From a phage, in the sequence record PZ019083.1: DNA of 41,142 nucleotides; one strand, written 5' to 3'. Under the pieces are notes generated by a model that had not been told where the DNA came from, did no database searches, and saw only the letters and a program-made list of their open reading frames with translations. Below, one piece after another: positions 3,324 through 37,582 of the stretch (position 1 is the stretch's first letter; every line of letters begins with the position of its first letter). The position numbers and the translations under genes were made by a program.

Positions 3324-3345
3324 AGCCCCGAAAGGGGCTTTCTTA
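3324..3345 (+). terminator. intrinsic terminator (AGCCCC-GAAA-GGGGCT + T-run)
   Basis: Perfect GC hairpin followed by T-rich tract after portal stop. Confidence 0.6.
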
Positions 3346-3349
3346 TAGT

Positions 3350-4426
3350 ATGCTATTAACTTTAGCACCACAGGGTTTAACTATGAGCTTACTTACATCC
3401 CTAATCAGCCACCAGATATGGCTGCAACGAACCGCATCCGGCGAAGTGAAAGACCTCGCACCGTTCATTCAGGAAATGCGGGACGAAATCAAACGGCAGG
3501 TGCTGTTATTCGGTGACGACGGGCGAAGCACCGCGCGGCTGAATAAACTGTTACGCGACCTTGAAGAAGCGCTAACCGGACTTACCGGCGACTGGCAAAC
3601 AAAGCTGACAGAAGACCTCAAGGAGCTGGCGGCGTATGAGGCTGAGTGGAACGTAAAGACGCTGGCCACCAACGTAGATGCGGAATTTGTCACGCCTACC
3701 GCCGAACAGGTGTGGGCTGCCGCTGAGTTTCAACCCTTATCATTAAGCGACAAGCCTGTTGATTTCACTAAGCTGATGTCGGGATGGGGTGAAACCGAAG
3801 TAGCACGTCTCGTAACCGGCGTTAAGATGGGCTTTGTTCAGGGTAAGACAACACGGCAGATTGTTACAGAAGTAGTCGGTAAAGGTGGGCTGGCTGACGT
3901 ATCAGAGAAATATGCGGCTACAGTAATCCGCACCGCGCTGTCCCACGTATCCAACGAAGCCCGTAACGAGACGTACCGCCAGAACGACGACATCATCGAG
4001 AAGTACGAGTGGGTGTCGACGCTGGACAGCCGTACCAGTACGATTTGTAGGGCCAGAGACGGAATGACGTGGGAAATCGGTAAGGGGCCGATGCCGCCAG
4101 CACATCCGAATTGCCGGAGTACCACTGCACCAGTAATCAGTTCGGAGTTCGACTTCCTCGATAAGGGAGCAAAACGAGCAGCTAAGGGTGCGGACGGCGG
4201 TATGCAGGTAAGTGCAGACACCACCTATTATGAGTTCCTGAAACAACAACCGGCATGGTTTCAGGACCAGGCTCTAGGCCCTGTTCGCGGTAAGATTTTC
4301 CGTAACAGCGGTATATCGCCGGAAGAGTTTCGCGTAATATCTGTAGATGGTTTCGGGAATCCGCTCACGCTTAAGCAGATGGCGGAACTCGATAAACGTG
4401 TTGCTGATTATCTGAAAGGGGAATAA
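3350..4426 (+). CDS. head morphogenesis / minor head protein (Mu F or SPP1 gp7-like)
   Basis: 358 aa ORF after portal; C-terminal Cys/His-containing region; start could instead be ATG 3371. Confidence 0.55.
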   Translation: MLLTLAPQGLTMSLLTSLISHQIWLQRTASGEVKDLAPFIQEMRDEIKRQVLLFGDDGRSTARLNKLLRDLEEALTGLTGDWQTKLTEDLKELAAYEAEWNVKTLATNVDAEFVTPTAEQVWAAAEFQPLSLSDKPVDFTKLMSGWGETEVARLVTGVKMGFVQGKTTRQIVTEVVGKGGLADVSEKYAATVIRTALSHVSNEARNETYRQNDDIIEKYEWVSTLDSRTSTICRARDGMTWEIGKGPMPPAHPNCRSTTAPVISSEFDFLDKGAKRAAKGADGGMQVSADTTYYEFLKQQPAWFQDQALGPVRGKIFRNSGISPEEFRVISVDGFGNPLTLKQMAELDKRVADYLKGE

Positions 4427-11126: not shown

Positions 11127-11357
11127 TTACTCATCAATGTTACTCCTGTAGTCCCGTAACTTTTCCAGACTTTCAATTGCTTCCGCTAAGTCTGTTCCTG
11201 TGTCCTTGTGCCCGCGAAGGCCCAAGCACAATAGCTTCTTCAATGCGTGTTGCAACGCAGGGTCACGGATGTCGAAAGCACGGAGAACATCGTAAACGTC
11301 TACTGTCATGGTGCTGCCGTGTGTATTTGTCATTGTGCGGTTGTATTTTGAAGTCAT
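11127..11357 (-). CDS. hypothetical protein, DUF3310-like
   Basis: 76 aa; motif ALQHALKKLLCLGLRGHKDTGTDLAEAIESL resembles DUF3310 phage proteins (from memory); ATGA coupling to upstream gene. Confidence 0.4.
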   Translation of the reverse strand: MTSKYNRTMTNTHGSTMTVDVYDVLRAFDIRDPALQHALKKLLCLGLRGHKDTGTDLAEAIESLEKLRDYRSNIDE

Positions 11358-12484
11358 CCCAGCATCTCCGGTGAAATAGTTAAACGTGCGACCTCGCCGT
11401 ATTCGGCGCTATAAGTAATTACATTTGCACTACGGCCCGACATCCAACCGCCTCTGGATGCGTAGGCGTCTTTGGCCGCTAAGGTGCGGTGTTGCTCAAC
11501 AATCATGTTACGGCTTTCTACAATCTTTTGGTGGTGCAGGTGGCCTACGTGGGCGTAGCTATAAACGCTCTCGCCGAACGCTTTGCGGAACTTGGCGATC
11601 ATAACCGGTTCAATAGCGTCGAATCGTGCTTTATGCCCGTGGTGAAAGAACAACGTCGTTTTGCCGTGTTGCACCATCTTGTAAACGTCCGGCGACGTGT
11701 CGACGATCACTCGGCTGTCTTTTGAGTATAAAGTCGTGAACATTTCCGCCAACCACACAGACCCTACAGGGTCGTGATTTCCTTGCACGATAAGCAAGCG
11801 AACATTTTTGTGCTTAACGAGCGCCATATCAACAACACGGCGGACCATACGAATCATGTAACGTACAAGTTTCTGGTAGCGCGTATCTGCATCCAACACA
11901 TGGCGCGACTCAGGCGTAACGGCGTCCAGGCTATCGAAGTGCGCGAAGTCGCCCAGCAGGTTAATAACTCCAGTTCCCGCGTCTGGTGCTTTCTGAAACG
12001 CGGCATCAAACCACCGAGAAAACAGGTCTTCAGCAATCTTCATATCCCAGTCGTCGCCGCTCTCGTCGGCCCAGGCCAGCATGCCGAGATGGAAATCAGA
12101 TACCGTGTAAAGATTGAGTAGCTTGTCATCACGTTTGGCTCGAGTCGCTTTAACAGGGACAACCGGCGTAATCTCTGACTTCATGCCTTCAATTACGGCT
12201 TTCATCAACTCGACCTGACGTTCGGCGTCAGTATCGGTCTTAACCCATTGCAGTTTAGTGTTGCCAAACTCGTCCACTAGTGACGACGTTCCTTTAATCT
12301 TGTAGCCGTCTGGCACAAGGTGACTAACGTCACGTCCGTGGCCTACACCTTTCTTAGCCAGCTTCGCTTTACGGATACGAATAACGCGGTCCGAGATGCC
12401 GTATTTACGGGCGATGTCTACATTCTTCATCCCGGCGTTCAATTCTTCCTGTAACTGTTCGTCGGTTATTTTCTTATGGGCCAT
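11354..12484 (-). CDS. HTH-containing calcineurin-like metallophosphoesterase
   Basis: Motifs SDFHLG, GDFAHFD, GNHD, HHGH, GHLHH; N-terminal HTH-like segment; start at ATG 12484 (MAHKK) with GAGGAAG RBS. Confidence 0.6.
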   Translation of the reverse strand: MAHKKITDEQLQEELNAGMKNVDIARKYGISDRVIRIRKAKLAKKGVGHGRDVSHLVPDGYKIKGTSSLVDEFGNTKLQWVKTDTDAERQVELMKAVIEGMKSEITPVVPVKATRAKRDDKLLNLYTVSDFHLGMLAWADESGDDWDMKIAEDLFSRWFDAAFQKAPDAGTGVINLLGDFAHFDSLDAVTPESRHVLDADTRYQKLVRYMIRMVRRVVDMALVKHKNVRLLIVQGNHDPVGSVWLAEMFTTLYSKDSRVIVDTSPDVYKMVQHGKTTLFFHHGHKARFDAIEPVMIAKFRKAFGESVYSYAHVGHLHHQKIVESRNMIVEQHRTLAAKDAYASRGGWMSGRSANVITYSAEYGEVARLTISPEMLG

Positions 12485-12522
12485 GCTTACTTCCTCGTGT
12501 TTAGGATTTGTCTTATAGTAGC

Positions 12523-12714
12523 CTACTTCTCTTTCACGTTCGAGTTGCAAGCCCAGATTAAAATAAATACCCACGGCAGCAGAACCCAGCCAAGAAACAG
12601 GTTAGCCGTGAATATCGCTAACTTCGCTTTATGGTTACGGAAGTACGCAACCAGGAAAGGCGCGAAATAAGCGAGAAGTGCAAACAGAATCAAGGAAACT
12701 GGTAAACTGGACAT
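12523..12714 (-). CDS. superinfection-immunity-like small membrane protein (Imm_superinfect family-like)
   Basis: Two TM helices; motif YFAPFLVAYFRNHKAKLAIFTANLFLGWVLLPWVFILIWA; AAGGGG RBS before ATG 12714. Confidence 0.5.
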   Translation of the reverse strand: MSSLPVSLILFALLAYFAPFLVAYFRNHKAKLAIFTANLFLGWVLLPWVFILIWACNSNVKEK

Positions 12715-12744
12715 TTTAAACCCCTTCATTGTTGGTGTAAGTGA

Positions 12745-12773
12745 ATAGTACCCTATTATATTGGGGTGTGCAA
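12745..12773 (-). promoter_or_regulatory. sigma70-type promoter TTGCAC-17-TACTAT (class A) driving the antisense accessory operon
   Basis: Near-identical to promoters at 34294 and 35511. Confidence 0.55.
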
Positions 12774-25121: not shown

Positions 25122-25406
25122 CTAACTATAATAGTTAGCTATTAGGTCGTCAACCTGTTTAAACGAACCAACGACAAAAACATTCGCGCCACGTTTACGC
25201 ATCCGCGCGTGTTCACGTAGCTGGTGCGGGTCTGGCTTCGTGTTTTCGTCTTTCTTAACCTCGACGAACCAGACTATGCCGCCGGGGAGAATTACCAGCA
25301 GGTCAGGAGCGCCTGAGCGCCCCTCGTAAGACAGCTTACGAACGAGGCCACCAATGGCCTCGAACATCTCTTTTGCGTATTTCTGAATCTTGCCTTCCGG
25401 GGTCAT
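25122..25406 (-). CDS. VRR-NUC domain nuclease
   Basis: Motif GAPDLLVILPGGIVWFVEVK typical of VRR-NUC PD-(D/E)XK fold. Confidence 0.65.
   Translation of the reverse strand: MTPEGKIQKYAKEMFEAIGGLVRKLSYEGRSGAPDLLVILPGGIVWFVEVKKDENTKPDPHQLREHARMRKRGANVFVVGSFKQVDDLIANYYS
25125..25153 (-). promoter_or_regulatory. sigma70 promoter TTGACG-17-TATAGT (class B) embedded in 3' end of VRR-NUC gene
   Basis: Same architecture as promoters at 28680 and 30799. Confidence 0.5.
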
Positions 25407-28679: not shown

Positions 28680-28708
28680 ACTATAATAGCTAACTATTCA
28701 GGTGTCAA
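28680..28708 (-). promoter_or_regulatory. sigma70 promoter TTGACA-17-TATAGT (class B)
   Basis: Consensus -35, 17-bp spacer containing GAATAGT element. Confidence 0.6.
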
Positions 28709-30266: not shown

Positions 30267-30767
30267 TTAGTCTTCTTCGAAATACTTGTTCTTGATTGCC
30301 GTCAGGCGTTCAAGGTACTCAGCAAGGTCTTCATCTTTAATCGCGGCAATCTTCATCTTCTTACCGGTGAACTCCTCCAGCAGTTCATCAGAATCATCAC
30401 ACGCGGCATCGCTCGGACCTTCGTTAATGGCGTCGTCGATAGCCTGAATCTGGTCACGCAGAGACTGGTAATCGACTTCTTCTTTCTCTTCTTCCGGCTC
30501 TGGTGTCGGCTCCTCTACTTTAGCTTTACGCGGCTTGCGTTTTGGCTTCTCTTCTTCAACCGGTTTAGTATCAACTACGTCTTCACCTTCGACCGGGATT
30601 TCTTTTGATCCTTCTTCTGCACACTTGGCTACTGCTTCTTTGGTATACGCTACCGTCTCTACTTCCAGAGGCGCGGAAACCTGAACAACTTGTTTCACGC
30701 TGTTCGCAGCAATCAGTTCATGAGCAACTACGAAACGTTCCAGTAATACTAAGAATTTCTCTAACAT
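30267..30767 (-). CDS. highly acidic hypothetical protein with short basic patch
   Basis: E/D-rich (PEPEEEKEE, DDSDELLEE) plus KPKRKPRKAK. Confidence 0.4.
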   Translation of the reverse strand: MLEKFLVLLERFVVAHELIAANSVKQVVQVSAPLEVETVAYTKEAVAKCAEEGSKEIPVEGEDVVDTKPVEEEKPKRKPRKAKVEEPTPEPEEEKEEVDYQSLRDQIQAIDDAINEGPSDAACDDSDELLEEFTGKKMKIAAIKDEDLAEYLERLTAIKNKYFEED

Positions 30768-30798
30768 TTGTTTCTCTCCTCTCGTTTGGTATGGGCTA

Positions 30799-30827
30799 AC
30801 TATAATAGCGAACTATTCACATGTCAA
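30799..30827 (-). promoter_or_regulatory. sigma70 promoter TTGACA-17-TATAGT (class B), overlaps operator repeat R1
   Basis: Consensus hexamers; spacer carries ACTATTCACATGTCAA. Confidence 0.6.
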
Positions 30828-30855
30828 TGGGCTTTTCTAAAATAATTAATATGGT

Positions 30856-30871
30856 ACTATTCACATATCAA
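30856..30871 (+). promoter_or_regulatory. operator repeat R2 (ACTATTCACATATCAA) overlapping -10 TACTAT of the Cro-like gene promoter
   Basis: 15/16 identical direct repeat of 30812-30827, 44 bp apart. Confidence 0.45.
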
Positions 30872-31124: not shown

Positions 31125-33395
31125 CTATTCCAAATCCTCCTCTGTCACCACCAGCATTTCATTCGGTTCGTATATTGTCTTCGGAATCTTGTTATCGTTT
31201 ATACCCCACGGCAATCGGTATTGCTTAGGGATAGGCCTGTTGTTGTTACCCAGACCTGAGACGATAACCCCGGCCTCGTGCATCTCTTCCAGTTTCTTTC
31301 GAAGGTCGTTATTAGCGTTAATCGGTACGCCGTAACTATCTTCTTTCGCTGCTTTGACGATAGCCGACATGGAAAACCCCCGCTTGTCGTCACCCTGCTC
31401 CTGCAATTTACCTAACGCGTAAATAACCGTAGCTTCTTTGGTATCCAGTTTCTCGAACTGACCTACCTTTTCTTTAACAGCCGCTTTACCTTCCTTTGTC
31501 AGCCCTTCTTCCCGCTCTTTCTCCTCGTCGGTCTTGAATGGTTCGAAACCCCACGGCATCAGCACAAGCGCCTTGTGTGGTTCAGGCAGGTCGAGGTTTA
31601 CGATTGTGCCGTATTCCTCCGTGCTTCCGAGGAACTCAACCGCGCGGTACTCTTTCGGTGGTGGCGCTTCACGGAACTGTACCGACTCCAGTACCATGCC
31701 AACCGTCTTCTGTTGAGGCCCGTGCTTAAATTTCGAGTGGTATACATTTATTTGACGTTCGGTCGCGCGTTCGATTGTTAGTTCCACGTCGACACCAGCG
31801 TACAGCGCCCCACTGCCACGGGCTTTCTTTCCACCTTTCGGCGTATGGTGGACAACGCCTACCGCGGCTTTAGTTGCGTCGCGTACTTCTTTCAGGATGG
31901 CGATAACTTTACCCATGCCGATTGTCGTTGATGAACTGTTCTCGTCGAACTTATCAATCGTCAGGGCCAGCGTCTGGTTGAGGGTGTCGAACGCAACCAT
32001 ACCAATAGGCTCGTCGCCCGCAGTTTCGCGCATTAACTTAATCAGGCTTTTCAGTTTCCCGACTTCGCCCATGTCGATAACATGTACATAATCTTTACCT
32101 TCCTCGCCATATTTAGCCGCTAGTGCGTCGATACGTGTGCGCGTAGCTGCGCCACCTTCACCGTCGATATAGAAATGGTGGCAACGCTGGGTATCTGCCC
32201 CGGCAAATCTGTATCCGGCGGCGCTAAGGTACATCATCCCCAGCGTATAAAACGATTTGTACGTTCCAGACTCCCCGACGATATCCCAGATGCAGTCTGT
32301 CGGCATGTATCCTTCTACGACGAAATCAGCCTTTACCGGTTCCGGTAACTCGTCCTCCTCTGAGTCCTCGTCGTCTTCCAGGTCGTCCAGACTGCATGAA
32401 ACTGACTCACGCGCACCCCAGCCGATGGCCTCGGCGACTTCACTGAATGGAAGACCAGTCGCATCACACGCATACTTCCACACCTCTTTCGGTGACATGC
32501 CCTCGGTTGCCGTGATGTCTGTGTCGTGAATCATGGTTACGTTAGGTGCTTCGTACCCCTCGCGCGGGAAGCACAGCAGGAAGTCGTCCGGGCGCGGGGT
32601 CGGGTCGCTGTAGTTTTCTGCGTGTTCCGGTGTGGCGGGCATCTTAAGTCCACGCGGCGTCATGATGCCGCCGTATTCGAACGCCAGTGCCTCGAACGCA
32701 TCAGTAAATGCCGTGCGCAGTTCTTCTGGTATCTGGTAATCCGATGCGCTGCTCACCTCGTAATCCGGGATGCCTTCCAGTAACTCGTCCGGGTCAATCA
32801 GGTCGTTACGGCGCGACCAGATAACGGTAGAGCCGACAGGCGGCAGGTACATCGGCTGCGACAGAGTGAACCCGCTGTGGTCCGCACCCATGCCTTTGAA
32901 GAAGTGCTCCAGCAATCCATGACGAACACGGATGATGCCACCACCTTCGACCGGGCGGCCCAGCGGCATGACGACGCGAAAGCGCGGTGACTCATCGGTA
33001 TGTGATGCCGTGGTGTAGAGGCACATAGCCAGGCGGCTACGCTTAACCAATCGCACCGCCTCCTGATACTCGTCAGGTGTTGCACTGTCGAAGTCCAGAT
33101 ACGCCAGCGACGATTTGTTTACAGACGCATCGCAGCGATAGAAGAAGCCTTTACGCGCCTGCTTAAAGTCCCCAGTTTCCGGGTCTTTTACGGTGCTGTG
33201 CGTTGAGTCGCACGCGGCGGTGATATACCCCGGCGCGGTCTTCGGGTTAATTCCGTCGCGAACAGCATCGAGCGGCTGGATTAACTCTTTCAGGTCGTCC
33301 AGTGTTGCCGTGTGTGTGGTTCTGACGTTTATATCCTTTTTCTCCGCCCGCGCGTTGCGACGAGACCACGAGTAGGATAAAATTACATCGGACAT
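31125..33395 (-). CDS. primase-polymerase domain fused to RecA/DnaB-like ATPase (replicative primase-helicase)
   Basis: Walker A GESGTYKS, Walker B-like VAFDT, N-terminal primase-polymerase-like region. Confidence 0.65.
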   Translation of the reverse strand: MSDVILSYSWSRRNARAEKKDINVRTTHTATLDDLKELIQPLDAVRDGINPKTAPGYITAACDSTHSTVKDPETGDFKQARKGFFYRCDASVNKSSLAYLDFDSATPDEYQEAVRLVKRSRLAMCLYTTASHTDESPRFRVVMPLGRPVEGGGIIRVRHGLLEHFFKGMGADHSGFTLSQPMYLPPVGSTVIWSRRNDLIDPDELLEGIPDYEVSSASDYQIPEELRTAFTDAFEALAFEYGGIMTPRGLKMPATPEHAENYSDPTPRPDDFLLCFPREGYEAPNVTMIHDTDITATEGMSPKEVWKYACDATGLPFSEVAEAIGWGARESVSCSLDDLEDDEDSEEDELPEPVKADFVVEGYMPTDCIWDIVGESGTYKSFYTLGMMYLSAAGYRFAGADTQRCHHFYIDGEGGAATRTRIDALAAKYGEEGKDYVHVIDMGEVGKLKSLIKLMRETAGDEPIGMVAFDTLNQTLALTIDKFDENSSSTTIGMGKVIAILKEVRDATKAAVGVVHHTPKGGKKARGSGALYAGVDVELTIERATERQINVYHSKFKHGPQQKTVGMVLESVQFREAPPPKEYRAVEFLGSTEEYGTIVNLDLPEPHKALVLMPWGFEPFKTDEEKEREEGLTKEGKAAVKEKVGQFEKLDTKEATVIYALGKLQEQGDDKRGFSMSAIVKAAKEDSYGVPINANNDLRKKLEEMHEAGVIVSGLGNNNRPIPKQYRLPWGINDNKIPKTIYEPNEMLVVTEEDLE

Positions 33396-33453
33396 GTTGT
33401 ATTTCCTTCAGCAAGTAATTTGGCCTCGGCGTTCACCGCGTCGGGGCTTTCTT

Positions 33454-33729
33454 TTATTCCAGGTCGCGGGAGATATTACCCTCGGGGACCAACACTTTTC
33501 CAATACTTCTCGCTTTCCCGTTAAGCGGCGTTGCTCTTGTTGCCCGATAAAACTTTCCTTTATTAAGAACCTCTCCGTGTTGCTCAAGAACACTTAAAGC
33601 ATGTTTAATCGGATTTACACCGTAATTATCTAACCGGTATCTACGAAGCCCGTCTAGTGTAAAAGCGCCGTTCGCCTCGGTCAGTCTGCGTGCGCACATT
33701 AATACGTGTTTCTGGAATTTAGTTAGCAT
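33454..33729 (-). CDS. hypothetical protein (91 aa)
   Basis: Coupled downstream of small HTH gene. Confidence 0.35.
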   Translation of the reverse strand: MLTKFQKHVLMCARRLTEANGAFTLDGLRRYRLDNYGVNPIKHALSVLEQHGEVLNKGKFYRATRATPLNGKARSIGKVLVPEGNISRDLE

Positions 33730-33898
33730 CTTTTACGTTCTCCTTAATCCAAGCCTCCACGGTAGCGCGGTCAAATGTGCCTGGCTGCCGGTAGCCGTTA
33801 ATAACCCGGCAACACTCGGGGAACTTACCTGACCGAAGCCAGCGATTAAGTGTCATAGGGGAAACTCCGATTAAGTCTGCTACTTCTTTCTGTGTCAT
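33719..33898 (-). CDS. small HTH DNA-binding protein (AlpA/excisionase-like fold)
   Basis: MTQKEVADLIGVSPMTLNRWLRSGKFP; ATG 33898 with AGAGGG RBS. Confidence 0.5.
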   Translation of the reverse strand: MTQKEVADLIGVSPMTLNRWLRSGKFPECCRVINGYRQPGTFDRATVEAWIKENVKDAN

Positions 33899-33927
33899 TT
33901 TACACACCCTCTTTATCAAGTGAAACA

Positions 33928-33956
33928 ACTATAACACCTACAATAACTAAACACAA
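33928..33956 (-). promoter_or_regulatory. candidate promoter TTGTGT-17-TATAGT for minus-strand replication operon
   Basis: -10 identical to class B promoters; weak -35. Confidence 0.35.
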
Positions 33957-33960
33957 CCTA

Positions 33961-33988
33961 TTGACAAAATAAAATGTAGCTGTAAAAT
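33961..33988 (+). promoter_or_regulatory. sigma70 promoter TTGACA-16-TAAAAT
   Basis: Consensus -35; faces a 350-bp noncoding stretch. Confidence 0.5.
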
Positions 33989-34210
33989 CAACGTATCGAA
34001 GGACCTTAGTTCAGAATTACTTAGAAACAGTATTCTTAAGTCTCTGGTGACCAAAGCCCGGCCCATAAAGGACGGGCGCTGAGAGTCACTTCGACAACGT
34101 TAGTATCTAAGTTTCCTCAAAGTAACAGCAAGTAGCAAGAAAGCCCCCGTCTATTTAAATTTTGCCATATGGTATAAATCATTGATTTGCAAGCTCACTC
34201 ACTCACTCTT

Positions 34211-34226
34211 GGTGCCTTCGGCACCA
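34211..34226 (+). other. GGTGCC-TTCG-GGCACC hairpin (UUCG tetraloop)
   Basis: Perfect 6-bp stem, followed by GTTCGTTTCGTTTCG. Confidence 0.4.
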
Positions 34227-34293
34227 CGTTCGTTTCGTTTCGCTCGCTACCCCCATTAAACGAAAGAATCACAACGGCAACGTAACTATTCTC

Positions 34294-34322
34294 TTGCACA
34301 CCCCAACATAATAGGATACTAT
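34294..34322 (+). promoter_or_regulatory. sigma70 promoter TTGCAC-17-TACTAT (class A)
   Basis: Near-identical to 35511 and 12745(-); ACTATTC copies at 34285 and 34318. Confidence 0.55.
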
Positions 34323-34356
34323 TCACTTATCGGAACGAGACAGAGGAGTGAGGGTT

Positions 34357-34542
34357 ATGTTTAAGAAGGGTCAGTTGGTGAGAATTTTGGAGACAGGGGG
34401 GTTAGCGGTTATTTCATTCGCACACCACAAAGAATGTAGTGTTTATTTTGCAAAATCTTTAACGGGGTCCTATCTCACCGTGTTATACGCACAAGATATG
34501 AAACTCATCGGCAACAATTTTAAATTCAAAGGGGCGAAGTGA
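34357..34542 (+). CDS. hypothetical protein (61 aa)
   Basis: GAGGAG RBS 7 nt upstream. Confidence 0.45.
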   Translation: MFKKGQLVRILETGGLAVISFAHHKECSVYFAKSLTGSYLTVLYAQDMKLIGNNFKFKGAK

Positions 34543-34745
34543 TGGAAGAATTATTTGAAGAACTGAAACATCATGAGTTCGAGGAGATATATTTTGTAGC
34601 TGAACGCTACGAGGTGCATTTAGTGGACGGGGTTACAATTATTACAATGGATAGCCAGCAAATGCTAAATAGCTTACGGGCTATACGAACGGCATCTAAT
34701 CATGATGCTCGTGCCGACGACTCCGAGGGAGGTTGCCGTGAATAA
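34542..34745 (+). CDS. hypothetical acidic protein (67 aa)
   Basis: TGATG overlap coupling; AAGGGG RBS. Confidence 0.4.
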   Translation: MEELFEELKHHEFEEIYFVAERYEVHLVDGVTIITMDSQQMLNSLRAIRTASNHDARADDSEGGCRE

Positions 34746-34805
34746 TTACCCGTTCATTTTAATTGTCAGCGCCGTTTATGTGGTGCACGCGTTGCGGGGG
34801 TTGGT

Positions 34806-35000
34806 ATGAGTCCCTATAACGAATCCCGCTTACGCCGTCTGATTGGTGGTCTGCGCGCCGCCGAGTTTGTTGTTGAATGTTGGGAGAAGGTGCAATATGC
34901 CCCATGGAAGTCGTGGCATTTGGCTCATGCTAAGGAGGTAGCACAGTACCGTGAGTACAAGTTAAACAGTTTCCTTAAACACCACGGGGTTGAGTTATGA
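34806..35000 (+). CDS. hypothetical protein (64 aa)
   Basis: ORF with ATG start. Confidence 0.4.
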   Translation: MSPYNESRLRRLIGGLRAAEFVVECWEKVQYAPWKSWHLAHAKEVAQYREYKLNSFLKHHGVEL

Positions 35001-35140
35001 GAGAAGCATTTGAACGGTGGGCCGTAGTCGAGGGTCTGCCGGTTAACAAGGGTTCAAAGAAAGAGTACCTGAACGTTAAGACGCGTCTCGCGTGGCGGGC
35101 GTGGAAAGCTGGTGTGCAAGCTGTGATGAATAAGGGGTGA
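34997..35140 (+). CDS. hypothetical protein (47 aa)
   Basis: ATGA overlap with upstream stop. Confidence 0.35.
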   Translation: MREAFERWAVVEGLPVNKGSKKEYLNVKTRLAWRAWKAGVQAVMNKG

Positions 35141-35143
35141 GAC

Positions 35144-35350
35144 ATGAGTGAGTGGGTTAAGTGTAGTGAGCGGATGCCGGGGCTAGGCAAACCAGTTTTG
35201 GTCGTCAGTAGTATGGGCGGTGTGGTCCAGAACAATGTGTACGAGTGGGATGGGGTAACTTGGTGTGATTTCCGGGCGGACTACGGGGAACACGCGAAGG
35301 AAGTGTTTTCTCACTGGATGCCGTTACCCGAGCCGCCGTCGCTGGTGTAA
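35144..35350 (+). CDS. DUF551-like protein
   Basis: C-terminal SHWMPLPEPP signature recalled from DUF551; AAGGGG RBS. Confidence 0.45.
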   Translation: MSEWVKCSERMPGLGKPVLVVSSMGGVVQNNVYEWDGVTWCDFRADYGEHAKEVFSHWMPLPEPPSLV

Positions 35351-35510
35351 CAGGTGGTGTAACAGGTCAATAGTTTGAGATTTTACTGAGTGACTTACGC
35401 TGCTACACAGCAGCGTATCATTTTTCTCATTTTTGTTCTATTTCACCAAACGCAACAATCGAAGCGACTATTGCAGGAGATGCAACAATACAAACACCAA
35501 TAAAATTTAC

Positions 35511-35539
35511 TTGCACGCTAATATAGAATAGGTTACTAT
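35511..35539 (+). promoter_or_regulatory. sigma70 promoter TTGCAC-17-TACTAT (class A)
   Basis: Consensus-like; ACTATTCA overlapping -10/+1. Confidence 0.55.
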
Positions 35540-35570
35540 TCATTTACACAAACGAGAGGAGAGGCGGAAG

Positions 35571-35720
35571 ATGGTTACTTTAATGGTTATGGAGTTCGAA
35601 AACAGCGCAGCAACTTACCGCGAGATGACTATGGCACAGGCGTACCACCTGGCCTCAAACGGCAACTTCTACAAGGCGCAAATCATCAACGAGTTCGGGG
35701 TAATTGACTATGAATTTTAG
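35571..35720 (+). CDS. hypothetical protein (49 aa)
   Basis: GAGGAGAGG RBS. Confidence 0.4.
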   Translation: MVTLMVMEFENSAATYREMTMAQAYHLASNGNFYKAQIINEFGVIDYEF

Positions 35721-35982
35721 AAGCTACACCGTTACCGTTGATTTTGAGGGGCTGGAGTTGCCCCTCCCGAACAACTACCGATATATCTCACGTGACCGTT
35801 TCGGTTTTATCCAGGCGTGGAGGAACAAGCCAACAGACACTGAGTTCGGGATGTCAGGCGGAGAAGAGTTGCCGATCACTTTCGGGCATCAGAGTAGTCA
35901 CGACGAACTTAAAACTGTGATTCGTAAGTATCGCCGCCGAGGTAACACCGGGCTTATAGCTATAACCGGCGCTGTTGAGTAA
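35710..35982 (+). CDS. hypothetical protein (90 aa)
   Basis: Overlaps upstream ORF by 11 nt. Confidence 0.4.
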   Translation: MNFRSYTVTVDFEGLELPLPNNYRYISRDRFGFIQAWRNKPTDTEFGMSGGEELPITFGHQSSHDELKTVIRKYRRRGNTGLIAITGAVE

Positions 35983-36001
35983 ACGAGAGGAGAGACAGAA
36001 G

Positions 36002-36520
36002 ATGGGTAACAAAAACGAAGTATTTGAGTACCTGATTGACCAACTACGGCAGCAGGTAAACAGCAACCAGTGTGAAGACCTGGCGCACGAGGTGCAGTCA
36101 CTTAAGAATCAGTTACGTGATGCTTCGGCGCTGGTGGCCGAGTTACAGCGAGAGCTGCAACATCAGATTGACCTGGCGTCGGGTGTGTATAGATGGTCTA
36201 CCGCACATTTCGACGAGAAAGGTAAAGTCACCAAGGTCGAGAGTGGGGTTAAGACAGAGCAATCCGGTTGCCGTAAAGAAGACGTGCAGGAATGTGAGAA
36301 CGATTGGGTTGAGTTTCACGGTTTGTTTATTGCAGAGGGGGACCTGCGAAATGAACCTGGGTATACCTTCTGCCGTAAATGCGGGCTGAAAGAATACTCC
36401 CGTAAATGTGAACATGAATGGTCCATGGTAACTGGCGACGGCCCAAGTTTCTATGAGTGCGATGTGTGCGGAGCCCGTAGTAAAGATTTACCGTACGACT
36501 TACGGTGGTTGGCACTATGA
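36002..36520 (+). CDS. hypothetical protein with coiled coil and C-terminal zinc-ribbon-like Cys pairs
   Basis: GAGGAGAG RBS; CRKCG ... CDVCG. Confidence 0.45.
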   Translation: MGNKNEVFEYLIDQLRQQVNSNQCEDLAHEVQSLKNQLRDASALVAELQRELQHQIDLASGVYRWSTAHFDEKGKVTKVESGVKTEQSGCRKEDVQECENDWVEFHGLFIAEGDLRNEPGYTFCRKCGLKEYSRKCEHEWSMVTGDGPSFYECDVCGARSKDLPYDLRWLAL

Positions 36521-36720
36521 CCAGCATCTTATTTATCTGGGTATTGTCCGCAGGCCAGATGCAACTCGCAGCATCAGAAACGTTTTATTCGATGGGGGCG
36601 TGCCAGTCAGCGGCACGCGCCGCGGAGAACGCGCACTTCATGTTTCAGGGCGACAAACCAAACGATTCAGAGGTACGCGCTATCTGCTCACCTAAGCGAC
36701 TTGGTAAACAGGAGAAGTGA
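36517..36720 (+). CDS. putative secreted small protein (signal peptide-like N-terminus)
   Basis: ATGA coupling; hydrophobic N-terminus MTSILFIWVLSAGQ. Confidence 0.35.
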   Translation: MTSILFIWVLSAGQMQLAASETFYSMGACQSAARAAENAHFMFQGDKPNDSEVRAICSPKRLGKQEK

Positions 36721-36722
36721 TT

Positions 36723-36905
36723 ATGGTTGCTCGTAAAGGCTTTTATGAAGATGGTCATTTCGATAGCAAAGTAAACGGTGAATACGTCACATACGAAGAC
36801 TACGCGAAACTTGAAGCCGAGTTACAGAAATACAAAGACCAGTTCCCGGATTACGTCGAGTGCGCGAACTGTGGGTCAGTTACACATGTGGAGGGGGTGG
36901 AGTGA
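36723..36905 (+). CDS. hypothetical protein (60 aa) with CxxC
   Basis: GGAGAAG RBS 5 nt upstream of ATG. Confidence 0.4.
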   Translation: MVARKGFYEDGHFDSKVNGEYVTYEDYAKLEAELQKYKDQFPDYVECANCGSVTHVEGVE

Positions 36906-37198
36906 TGTCTCTGGCTACTGATATCCTGAAACGTAGCGGCCTCGCGCCGCTGTCACCGAGAGCGAACACCCGGATATACAAGCGCCGCCGTAATGCGCTG
37001 TACCCTGAGATTCAGGCCAGGCGCAAAGCGGTACGCGCCTGTGGATTCCAGAACGGGAAGGCCGTGAATCTTAGTGAGTTTAAAACCCAGGAACGCGCAG
37101 CAATCGCTAATCGGTTATTTAATTACTGGAAGTCGCTGGGGTACGATGATATTCCAACGAAACCACAGAGACGACAATACATCTGGCGTCATAAATAA
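36905..37198 (+). CDS. hypothetical basic protein (97 aa)
   Basis: TGATG coupling. Confidence 0.4.
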   Translation: MSLATDILKRSGLAPLSPRANTRIYKRRRNALYPEIQARRKAVRACGFQNGKAVNLSEFKTQERAAIANRLFNYWKSLGYDDIPTKPQRRQYIWRHK

Positions 37199-37228
37199 AC
37201 CGTTATTAAGATAATTCCTAACCGTGCT

Positions 37229-37268
37229 ATCCTCCAGTTACTGCATACTTAATACGCACCTGGAGGAT
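37229..37268 (+). promoter_or_regulatory. stem-loop pairing ATCCTCCAG with CCTGGAGGAT, sequestering the holin Shine-Dalgarno
   Basis: 9-bp inverted repeat, 21-nt loop; second arm contains GGAGGA 6 nt before holin TTG start. Confidence 0.4.
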
Positions 37269-37273
37269 TCATC

Positions 37274-37582
37274 TTGGATAAATTTACTGAAACAGTGACG
37301 GGGTGGCTTCTCGCTGCCGCACTGGTCGGTGGATTGGTCGGACTAAGACAACATAAAAAGTCTATATCCGGGCCGATTGACGGACTGGTATTTCTTCTAA
37401 CCGGCTTTGCGTGTGCCATTTTCGGTGCACCTCTTGCCGCTCAATGGTTCGGTATTACCGGTGAGCGTGAGATAGCTGGCCTCGGATTCATCATTGCCAT
37501 TCTCTGGATGCCTATCTATTCCCGCCTTTCTGGCATCGTATCGGGTGGAGATATTTCCCGTCCGGGAGGACCTCATGACTGA
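37274..37582 (+). CDS. holin (3 predicted TM segments)
   Basis: Small protein with three hydrophobic helices and charged C-terminus, TTG start after GGAGGA. Confidence 0.55.
   Translation: MDKFTETVTGWLLAAALVGGLVGLRQHKKSISGPIDGLVFLLTGFACAIFGAPLAAQWFGITGEREIAGLGFIIAILWMPIYSRLSGIVSGGDISRPGGPHD

Follow-up and report, generated by a model that had tools for sequence, protein, structure and literature searches.

A conserved core and exchangeable cassettes in the small-gene block between the replication and lysis genes of a Kagunavirus genome

Introduction

What kind of genetic unit is a run of eleven small genes that is present in hundreds of deposited phage relatives, with products labelled nearly all as hypothetical proteins? 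We asked this question for positions 34357-37198 of phage sequence record PZ019083.1, a stretch of 41,142 nucleotides (nt) that we analysed as a whole and refer to as the window. An earlier reading made from the letters alone (hereafter the sequence-only reading) had described this block as early-type genes with serial translational coupling, driven by class A promoters and probably encoding host-takeover or anti-defence proteins. We favor, with a probability of about 0.6, a reading in which the block is a two-operon, operator-controlled non-structural unit that combines a conserved regulatory or housekeeping backbone with exchangeable host-interaction cassettes. Below, we number the genes g1 to g11 from left to right.

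To place the block, we compared positions 34000-37400 with 50,697 phage records by megablast and obtained matches to 374 of them. The top matches were Escherichia, Raoultella or Salmonella siphoviruses, all of them Guernseyvirinae and most of them Kagunavirus (by name Ro145clw, DUEC01, Bas70-76, Schulenburg, Golestan and RP180), with nucleotide identities of 80-95%. Coverage of the query by a single record reached 67% at most, so the block is mosaic with respect to any one deposited phage. We assign the window to Kagunavirus (Guernseyvirinae); the block is the small-gene region that phages of this type usually have between their replication genes and their lysis genes. The minus-strand genes upstream encode a primase-helicase (31125-33395, AAA_25), a 91-amino-acid (aa) protein and an HTH_17 protein (33719-33898), and those downstream, on the plus strand, encode two holins and a lysozyme-type endolysin. 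We found no functional study of the block genes in the literature.

Results

The eleven reading frames are real genes

Eleven plus-strand open reading frames (ORFs) of 47-172 aa fill 34357-37198 exactly, as the sequence-only reading had listed them. GC skew is positive across the block, and each of the eleven starts is preceded at 5-13 nt by a purine-rich Shine-Dalgarno (SD) sequence. To assess selection, we took orthologous codons from six relatives and calculated the ratio of nonsynonymous to synonymous substitution rates (dN/dS) by the Nei-Gojobori method; alleles were compared across nine Guernseyvirinae loci (L001-L009, of which L001-L006 are from Kagunavirus and L007 is from Jerseyvirus). 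With 4-33 synonymous differences in each comparison, the ratio was 0.02-0.2 for g3, g4, g6, g7, g9 and g11, the sole exception being a g4 value of 0.34. The divergent g1, g5, g8 and g10 gave 0.2-0.6 with saturated dS, and a single value, that of g1 against L005, reached 1.16. As the ratios against orthologues are low, the ORFs are not chance frames, and we conclude that all eleven are real genes; the same coding sequences (CDSs) were called independently by other annotators in deposited relatives.

It could still be argued that most of these ORFs are non-functional filler, either chance frames or decaying remnants, given that they have no known function, that several are shorter than 70 aa, and that gene content varies among close relatives, with one small gene deleted from the window before the second promoter described below. 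We regard this explanation as very improbable in light of the numerous synonymous changes and of dN/dS values that stay far under 1 in every testable gene, the SD sequence before every start, the CDS calls by independent groups, and the availability of a PHROG or Pfam family for ten of the eleven genes. None of the block's proteins contained a recognizable enzymatic domain in Pfam, PHROGs, NCBIfam or PADLOC, which agrees with what had been noted before, and searches of ten of them against NCBIfam and PADLOC returned only noise.

The block reads as two operons

Start-stop overlaps occur at five of the ten junctions (TGATG at g1/g2 and g10/g11, ATGA at g3/g4 and g8/g9, and 11 nt at g6/g7), and gaps of only 3 nt and 2 nt separate g4 from g5 and g9 from g10. 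These arrangements suggest that translation of neighboring genes is coupled. The remaining junctions measure 19 nt (g7/g8), 60 nt (g2/g3) and 220 nt (g5/g6), and the last of these spacers contains both a predicted terminator and a predicted promoter. Because these two elements lie between g5 and g6, the block reads as two operons (g1-g5 and g6-g11) instead of a single coupled run. Thus, of the serial coupling proposed from sequence alone, the five overlaps and two gaps of 3 nt or less are borne out, whereas the idea of one serial unit is not.

The class A promoters of the sequence-only reading correspond to two exact copies of TTGCAC-N17-TACTAT: P1 (34294-34323, plus strand), 35 nt before g1, and P2 (35511-35540, plus strand), 32 nt before g6. 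The motif occurs exactly three times in the window (34294-34322 and 35511-35539 on the plus strand, and 12773-12745 on the minus strand), and it is found at the P1 and P2 positions in all six Kagunavirus relatives (L001-L006). P1 and P2 belong to a 53-nt direct repeat that takes in the leader. Each matches the sigma-70 consensus at 7 of 12 positions, retaining the most conserved TTG and TA...T, and this low match explains why a generic promoter scan missed them. We take P1 and P2 to be putative sigma-70-type promoters.

The first operon would end at a predicted intrinsic terminator (35396-35427, plus strand), in which a 9-bp stem (TACGCTGCT/AGCAGCGTA) with five GC pairs and a 4-nt loop is followed by the T-rich tail TCATTTTTCT, giving the GC-rich stem-loop and U tract expected of such an element. 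The 80-nt stretch around it folds at -21.6 kcal/mol, its stem is kept in the Jerseyvirus locus L007 with a different loop, and a terminator feature is annotated in phage Schulenburg. Between this terminator and P2, relatives carry an extra gene of about 55 aa (L003 2696-2863, L004 2953-3120, L001 3574-3750) that the window lacks; a remnant ribosome-binding region (...gcaggagatgcaacaATA...) of the deleted gene is visible at 35485-35495.

A 28-nt leader with its SD sequence, AAACGAGAGGAGAG(R)C(R)GAAGATGG, is duplicated before g6 (35550-35577) and g8 (35981-36008). Its 13-nt core is also present at 30774-30786 on the minus strand, before a 166-aa gene at 30267-30767. As the P2-equivalent promoter of Jerseyvirus stands directly before the g8 homologue, g6 and g7 look like an insertion at the duplicated leader, which may have served as a recombination junction.

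At the other end of the second operon, the spacer between g11 and the holin gene can form a hairpin (37229-37268, plus strand; 9-bp stem AUCCUCCAG...CUGGAGGAU) whose 3' arm includes the holin SD sequence GGAGGA (37262-37267), just ahead of the holin TTG start at 37274. The surrounding 92 nt fold at -18.8 kcal/mol (z -2.25), and the 97-99% identity of this region in Kagunavirus leaves no room for a covariation test of the hairpin. Jerseyvirus has a clear intrinsic terminator at this position. The hairpin could block translation of the holin, terminate transcription weakly, or do both. Rfam searches, run on the complete window with gathering scores as cutoffs and on 33300-37400 with E up to 1, gave no matches, and neither did a tRNA scan.

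One palindrome links the predicted promoters of the non-structural genes

The spacer and -10 element of P1 and P2 together form a palindrome, AATAG-N4-CTATT, that overlaps the -10 element (AATAGGATACTATT at 34310-34323 in P1; AATAGGTTACTATT at 35527-35540 in P2). The 41-kb window contains six exact copies of it, at 12744-12757, 25130-25143, 28685-28698, 30804-30817, 34310-34323 and 35527-35540, where 0.03 would be expected and shuffled sequences never held more than one; near-copies lie at 3344-3357 and 30848-30861. All six exact copies fall within promoter-like sites. In the three class A sites the palindrome overlaps the -10 element TACTAT, and the third of these sites (12773, minus strand) precedes an Imm_superinfect gene. 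In class B, comprising three leftward promoters of the form TTGAC(A/G)-N4-AATAGnnnnCTATT-ATAGT at 25153, 28708 and 30827, the palindrome makes up the spacer, and the match to the sigma-70 consensus is 10-11 of 12 positions. The class B promoter at 28708 is upstream of an Enc34-type single-stranded DNA-binding protein gene, the one at 25153 is upstream of a 63-aa ORF followed by an SNF2 helicase gene, and the one at 30827 is upstream of the 166-aa ORF, for which we found no Pfam match. The palindrome also occurs twice in the equivalent block of each of two Jerseyvirus phages.

The same palindrome is thus found in P1 and P2, in replication-gene promoters and in the superinfection-immunity promoter, which argues for one shared regulator. 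On the simplest reading, the palindrome is probably the operator of a single dimeric regulator of all non-structural promoters, and the neighboring HTH_17 protein (33719-33898, minus strand) is the likeliest candidate to bind it. Through the promoters it shares with replication and superinfection immunity, the block also fits, by association, the early class assigned to it by the sequence-only reading. In the sole Kagunavirus transcriptome (PMC12645636), the helix-turn-helix (HTH) gene is among four early genes, and the block ORFs are not resolved.

Five genes form a conserved core

The proteins encoded by g4, g6, g7, g9 and g11 show 88-100% aa identity across Kagunavirus. The basic 47-aa product of g4 (34997-35140; phrog_15836 at 5e-35) is 89-100% identical in six Kagunavirus loci, with dN/dS of 0.00-0.16 in five comparisons and the exceptional 0.34 in the sixth. 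The 49-aa product of g6 (35571-35720) is a DUF7170 protein (Pfam PF23776; 65.2 bits against a cutoff of 27, E 5.8e-18), its residues 1-49 aligning with positions 1-50 of the 52-position profile; it is 94-98% identical in four relatives, with dN/dS of 0.03-0.09. The 90-aa product of g7 (35710-35982; phrog_1972 at 3.5e-13) is 92-93% identical within Kagunavirus (dN/dS 0.04-0.08) and belongs to a narrow family of 12 clusters among 5.8 billion proteins; a deep search for g7 relatives gave no domain clue.

Only g9 and g11 are present in all nine loci compared, in which they are immediate or near neighbors and invariably sit right ahead of the lysis cassette. The 67-aa product of g9 (36517-36720; phrog_3766 at 4.3e-35) is 88-97% identical in Kagunavirus and 56-88% identical in Jerseyvirus and an unclassified relative, with dN/dS of 0.03-0.19. 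It matched 475 phage records, of which all but a few came from phages of Salmonella and Escherichia, and each record that we inspected was from Guernseyvirinae. Its N-terminus, MTSILFIWVLSAGQMQLAA, is hydrophobic (peak KD15 of 1.59 at residue 4) and is conserved in all nine loci together with both cysteines. This is the protein for which a signal peptide had been proposed: a hydrophobic core (ILFIWVLSAG) and a possible cleavage site (LAA|SE) are there, but a basic n-region is absent. Cleaved signals are seldom as conserved as this N-terminus, so that a membrane anchor is just as possible, and we infer that g9 encodes an exported or membrane-anchored protein.

The 97-aa product of g11 (36905-37198) is strongly basic (isoelectric point (pI) 11.2, net charge +15.6) and has a basic linker as well as an MSLATDILK peptide that is invariant at the N-terminus. 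Identity is 92-98% in Kagunavirus and about 30-36% to longer Jerseyvirus homologues. The window protein itself matched no Pfam family at E up to 0.1. Its distant relatives, recovered by an exhaustive HMMER search, align with the AP2 signature PGV...W.A....LG.F.T.ERA.IA, and 13 of the 35 aligned family members matched PF00847 (AP2), the best at 1e-5. In the PDB, the family profile matched the AP2 structures WRI1 (8.8e-4) and TEM1 (0.037) and nothing else; matches in BFVD were mostly phage AP2/ERF proteins and AP2-bearing HNH endonucleases, and the predicted hairpin-plus-helix core superposes best on AP2 domains. The Kagunavirus proteins have lost the first AP2 strand. These data make g11 a likely truncated AP2-like protein, the first such assignment for this family, and perhaps a member of the AP2 family in the strict sense; DNA binding is predicted, and the high positive charge would suit it.

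Could g9-g11, or perhaps g8-g11, be a lysis or late control module, in which g11 switches on transcription into the holin, endolysin and late genes, by activation or antitermination, and g9 adjusts the timing of lysis? The proposal is by analogy with lambda Q, which is encoded just upstream of S-R-Rz, and it gains from the constant position of g9 and g11 before the lysis cassette in all nine loci (directly adjacent in Jerseyvirus SS5), from the terminator (Jerseyvirus) or SD-masking hairpin (Kagunavirus) between these genes and the holin gene, and from the pairing of a strongly basic, AP2-like protein with one whose N-terminus appears membrane-targeting. However, we identified neither a late promoter nor a g11 binding site, and we saw nothing resembling Q, Ogr/Delta or another of the known late activators. 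In addition, many relatives have an NTN-hydrolase/HslV-like gene between the g11 homologue and the holin gene, and phage AP2 domains are best known as DNA-binding modules of homing endonucleases, not as regulators. We therefore consider a lysis-control module quite unlikely.

Six genes behave as exchangeable cassettes

The remaining genes, g1, g2, g3, g5, g8 and g10, behave as exchangeable accessory cassettes. The basic 61-aa product of g1 (34357-34542; pI 9.8; phrog_12538, of unknown function) is a divergent allele, 29-48% identical to its positional orthologues in L001-L007 and without a match in L008 or L009; 35 phage records matched this allele, the best at 88%. For the acidic 67-aa product of g2 (34542-34745), whose start overlaps the g1 stop, most relatives share only the C-terminal ~18 aa, and full-length matches were found in L003 (70%) and L006 (85%). 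The 64-aa product of g3 (34806-35000) is sporadic, occurring in two of the nine loci and 24 phage records, with dN/dS of 0.09-0.20, and has no Pfam or PHROG family. The acidic 60-aa product of g10 (36723-36905; phrog_29624 at 1.3e-29), predicted to contain a helix and a single CxxC, is 62-93% identical in relatives and has a second copy in L002.

Exchange is most directly visible in g5 (35144-35350), which encodes a 68-aa DUF551 protein (Pfam PF04448; 53.5 bits against a cutoff of 22, E 4.6e-14), with residues 3-65 aligned to positions 1-67 of the 68-position profile and a C-terminus (...SHWMPLPEPPSLV) that contains the HWMPLPEPP motif. This is the DUF551-like protein singled out by the sequence-only reading. 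Against its positional counterparts in other Kagunaviruses it reaches no more than 40-45% identity, yet it is 85% identical in aa and 86% in nt to a gene of Salmonella phage Akira (Akiravirus), a match that is exactly gene-long, and 79% identical in aa to a Skatevirus gene. In Akiravirus and Skatevirus, these genes lie on the reverse strand in a moron-like cluster among the tail genes. As the match to these genera exceeds that to the Kagunavirus genes at the same position, horizontal exchange of the g5 cassette is directly evidenced. A larger shared cassette of g4 and g5 was rejected, as the 47-aa protein encoded before DUF551 in Akiravirus is unrelated to g4.

The most diversified cassette is g8 (36002-36520; 172 aa; phrog_6094 at 3.8e-43). 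Its family comprises 1336 clusters at 90% identity, with lengths of 110-260 aa, whereas the same search tool gave 42 clusters for g11 and 12 for g7. The N-terminal ~55 residues are near-invariant, and AlphaFold2 predicts a 57-residue helix at residues 3-59; this conserved coiled coil is followed by a beta-hairpin and two zinc modules (CxHxW...CxxCG). The predicted helix and the CxxC...CxxC motifs agree with the earlier description of a coiled-coil/zinc-ribbon protein. In the family alignment, C98, H100, W102, C124, C127 and G128 are invariant or nearly so. Relatives have zero to four modules of the form C-x-H-x-W ... C-x-x-C-G, each after a (K/R)EDxQE linker, and the 211 modules from 121 proteins comprise 126 distinct sequences. 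These modules show the pattern of four potential ligands, from which zinc binding is predicted. In the window, module 2 (CEHEW...CDVCG) is complete; module 1 reads CENDW where the family has CEHxW, with Asn for His (residue 100; 36098-36100 region), and may no longer bind zinc as a result. Elsewhere among the 211 modules, Asn takes this place just once, in CENSW of P0002.

Pfam searches of all g8 relatives gave only sub-threshold coiled-coil and zinc-ribbon matches, and Foldseek found no PDB match for g8 at E 0.001 or below. The zinc part is modelled at low confidence (predicted local distance difference test scores of about 50-60), and on both grounds we make no fold-based claim for g8. PDB sequence searches with g5, g8 and g11 likewise returned no significant match.

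Might the whole block instead consist of effectors of host takeover or anti-defence, every one of which binds and inhibits some target in the host or its defences soon after infection begins? This was the proposal of the sequence-only reading, and for the six variable cassettes it is reasonable: these proteins are small and without enzymatic domains, they stand in an early-like promoter context, and the strong diversification of g8 is what an arms race predicts. It fits the five conserved genes poorly. Those genes are near-invariant with dN/dS of 0.2 or less (0.34 in one g4 comparison), g9 and g11 extend across the subfamily, and g11 resembles a DNA-binding protein. Because the core genes are so strongly conserved, and g9 and g11 subfamily-wide, they fit fixed phage-internal roles better than those of arms-race genes.

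The likenesses to known anti-defence proteins are marginal. We rejected g10 as a Lar protein (PF14354), since it scored 13.7 bits against a cutoff of 28.6 and E 0.0033 in PHROGs and has two cysteines instead of four. We also rejected the g8 coiled coil as a T7 gp5.9-type RecBCD inhibitor (phrog_9014 at E 0.0088, where no stretch qualified; PDB 8b1r_P at E 0.52), as its gp5.9-like matches stand among many unrelated coiled-coil matches. Both likenesses stay under every threshold and lack the defining features, and neither PADLOC nor the PHROG takeover category gave anything over noise among the block proteins. No member of the block can thus be identified as belonging to a known anti-defence or takeover family. 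Seven Kagunavirus isolates that have been phenotyped were reported to be highly sensitive to restriction-modification and variably sensitive to Old (10.1101/2024.09.12.612763), and this high sensitivity disfavors a strong anti-restriction function in the conserved part of the block. We also looked for homology to structural or replication proteins among the members of the block, and most showed none. Taken for the block as a whole, a takeover role is unlikely in our view.

Additional features of the region

We also noted a candidate micro-ORF at 34738-34809 (plus strand; 23 codons, GTG start, SD GAGGGAGG) that would encode the hydrophobic peptide VNNYPFILIVSAVYVVHALRGLV. It overlaps the end of g2 and shares an ATGA with the start of g3. 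L001 and L005 conserve its translation at 87-91%, and the L001 copy stops exactly where g4 starts. Tentatively, it may bridge translational coupling between g2 and g3 or encode a small membrane peptide; the substitutions are too few for a coding test.

The divergent intergenic region upstream of P1 (33929-34293) contains a promoter matching the sigma-70 consensus at 11 of 12 positions (33961-33988, plus strand, about 370 nt before g1), a hairpin GGUGCC-UUCG-GCACC at 34210-34226, and short repeats (CTCA three times, CGTTT twice). Relatives such as RP180, Sciku and Shashou share positions 34189-34290 at 97-99% identity, a level that the g1 coding sequence does not come near, and 33930-34189 is common only to the K1G/K1H group. 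A leader RNA, regulator binding sites or an origin are possible roles for this region.

The class A promoter on the minus strand heads a moron-like unit within the structural region, with a 63-aa Imm_superinfect gene (12526-12714; PF14373, 46.9 bits) followed by a gene for a 406-aa protein with a weak metallophosphoesterase match (11354-12574), both on the minus strand.

Discussion

We propose that the block is a rightward non-structural ('early') transcription unit between a divergent control region and the lysis cassette. According to this model, host RNA polymerase would start at the two phage-specific sigma-70-type promoters. Transcription from P1 would cover g1-g5 and stop at the intrinsic terminator, and transcription from P2 would cover g6-g11, up to the hairpin that may also mask the holin ribosome-binding site. 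One dimeric phage regulator acting on AATAG-N4-CTATT would switch all palindrome-bearing units together, while start-stop overlaps or gaps of 3 nt or less, with an SD sequence for each start, would couple the translation of most neighbors. The backbone of g4, g6, g7, g9 and g11 would serve the phage's own programme, and g1, g2, g3, g5, g8 and g10 are plausible host-interaction genes.

This organization has its closest counterparts in other Guernseyvirinae (Kagunavirus K1G, Ro145clw, Schulenburg, Bas70-76 and RP180; Jerseyvirus Shelanagig and SS5), whose blocks occupy the same position, from the HTH gene and control region to the holin and endolysin genes, and have the same two-operon layout with an internal terminator, with the P1/P2 motif in Kagunavirus and the palindrome in Jerseyvirus. 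What distinguishes the window is its particular combination of alleles, including an uncommon g1 and a DUF551 allele of the Akiravirus/Skatevirus type. Also missing from the window is the NTN-hydrolase/HslV-like gene that, in RP180 and Jerseyvirus, follows the g11 homologue and precedes the holin gene (4587-5027 of L005 and 4411-4845 of L007). In DUEC01, an HNH homing endonuclease gene (L003 5231-5746) that is absent from the window lies between the holin and endolysin genes.

More distant parallels exist. Lambda exo-xis/nin-type regions are likewise early-transcribed runs of small uncharacterised ORFs with mosaic exchange and DUF551 as a portable module. Lambda Ea22 has a conserved N-terminus, a coiled coil and a swappable C-terminal domain, one variant of which carries DUF551 (PMC10834534). 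The architecture of g8, with a constant, presumably oligomerising N-terminus and swappable C-terminal units, is analogous to that of Ea22 without sequence membership, as g8 gives no Ead_Ea22 match in Pfam. These regions differ from the block in that the Kagunavirus group is described as lytic and in that the DUF551 protein of the window is a stand-alone protein of 68 aa. The class I early genes of T7 (0.3-1.3) are similarly small ORFs behind host-polymerase promoters and expected to be early; none has a homologue in the block, the sole similarity being the noise-level one between g8 and gp5.9. Compared with T7, the block appears to depend on the host polymerase, with the putative operator built into its promoters.

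Two of the block's proteins can be set beside characterized families. The g11 family shares the signature GV...W.A....LG.F.T.E.A..A with AP2/ERF proteins (PF00847), which occur in phage HNH homing endonucleases and as stand-alone phage proteins; the Kagunavirus version differs in having no nuclease domain, in the loss of the first strand, and in being a syntenic core gene instead of a mobile element. Like Lar of the Rac prophage (PF14354), g10 is small and has a CxxC, with weak matches to Lar_restr_allev and the Lar-like phrog_3592, but it has one CxxC and not the two that form a zinc ribbon.

A bolder combination of these ideas, in which the palindrome is the operator of one small regulator that times Guernseyvirinae non-structural transcription, g11 is that regulator or a lysis/late switch, and g8 is a dimeric scaffold displaying shuffled mini zinc modules, is improbable as a whole. 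If it were true, g11 would be a bacteriophage AP2-fold developmental transcription factor and not a homing-endonuclease module, and g8 would be a phage equivalent of a diversifying zinc-finger array, shaped by evolution against host targets that vary, defence proteins for example.

The block is an ordinary early/accessory region of every Kagunavirus and Jerseyvirus, represented in the window by a new combination of alleles, and by itself the finding changes little. What is new is the partition into core genes and cassettes, the likely AP2-like assignment of a core gene found across the subfamily, and the enriched promoter palindrome. The partition shows six cassettes where anti-host functions should be sought first, and the palindrome opens to direct testing the regulatory circuit of a widely isolated group of phages that is a candidate for use in phage therapy and synthetic biology.

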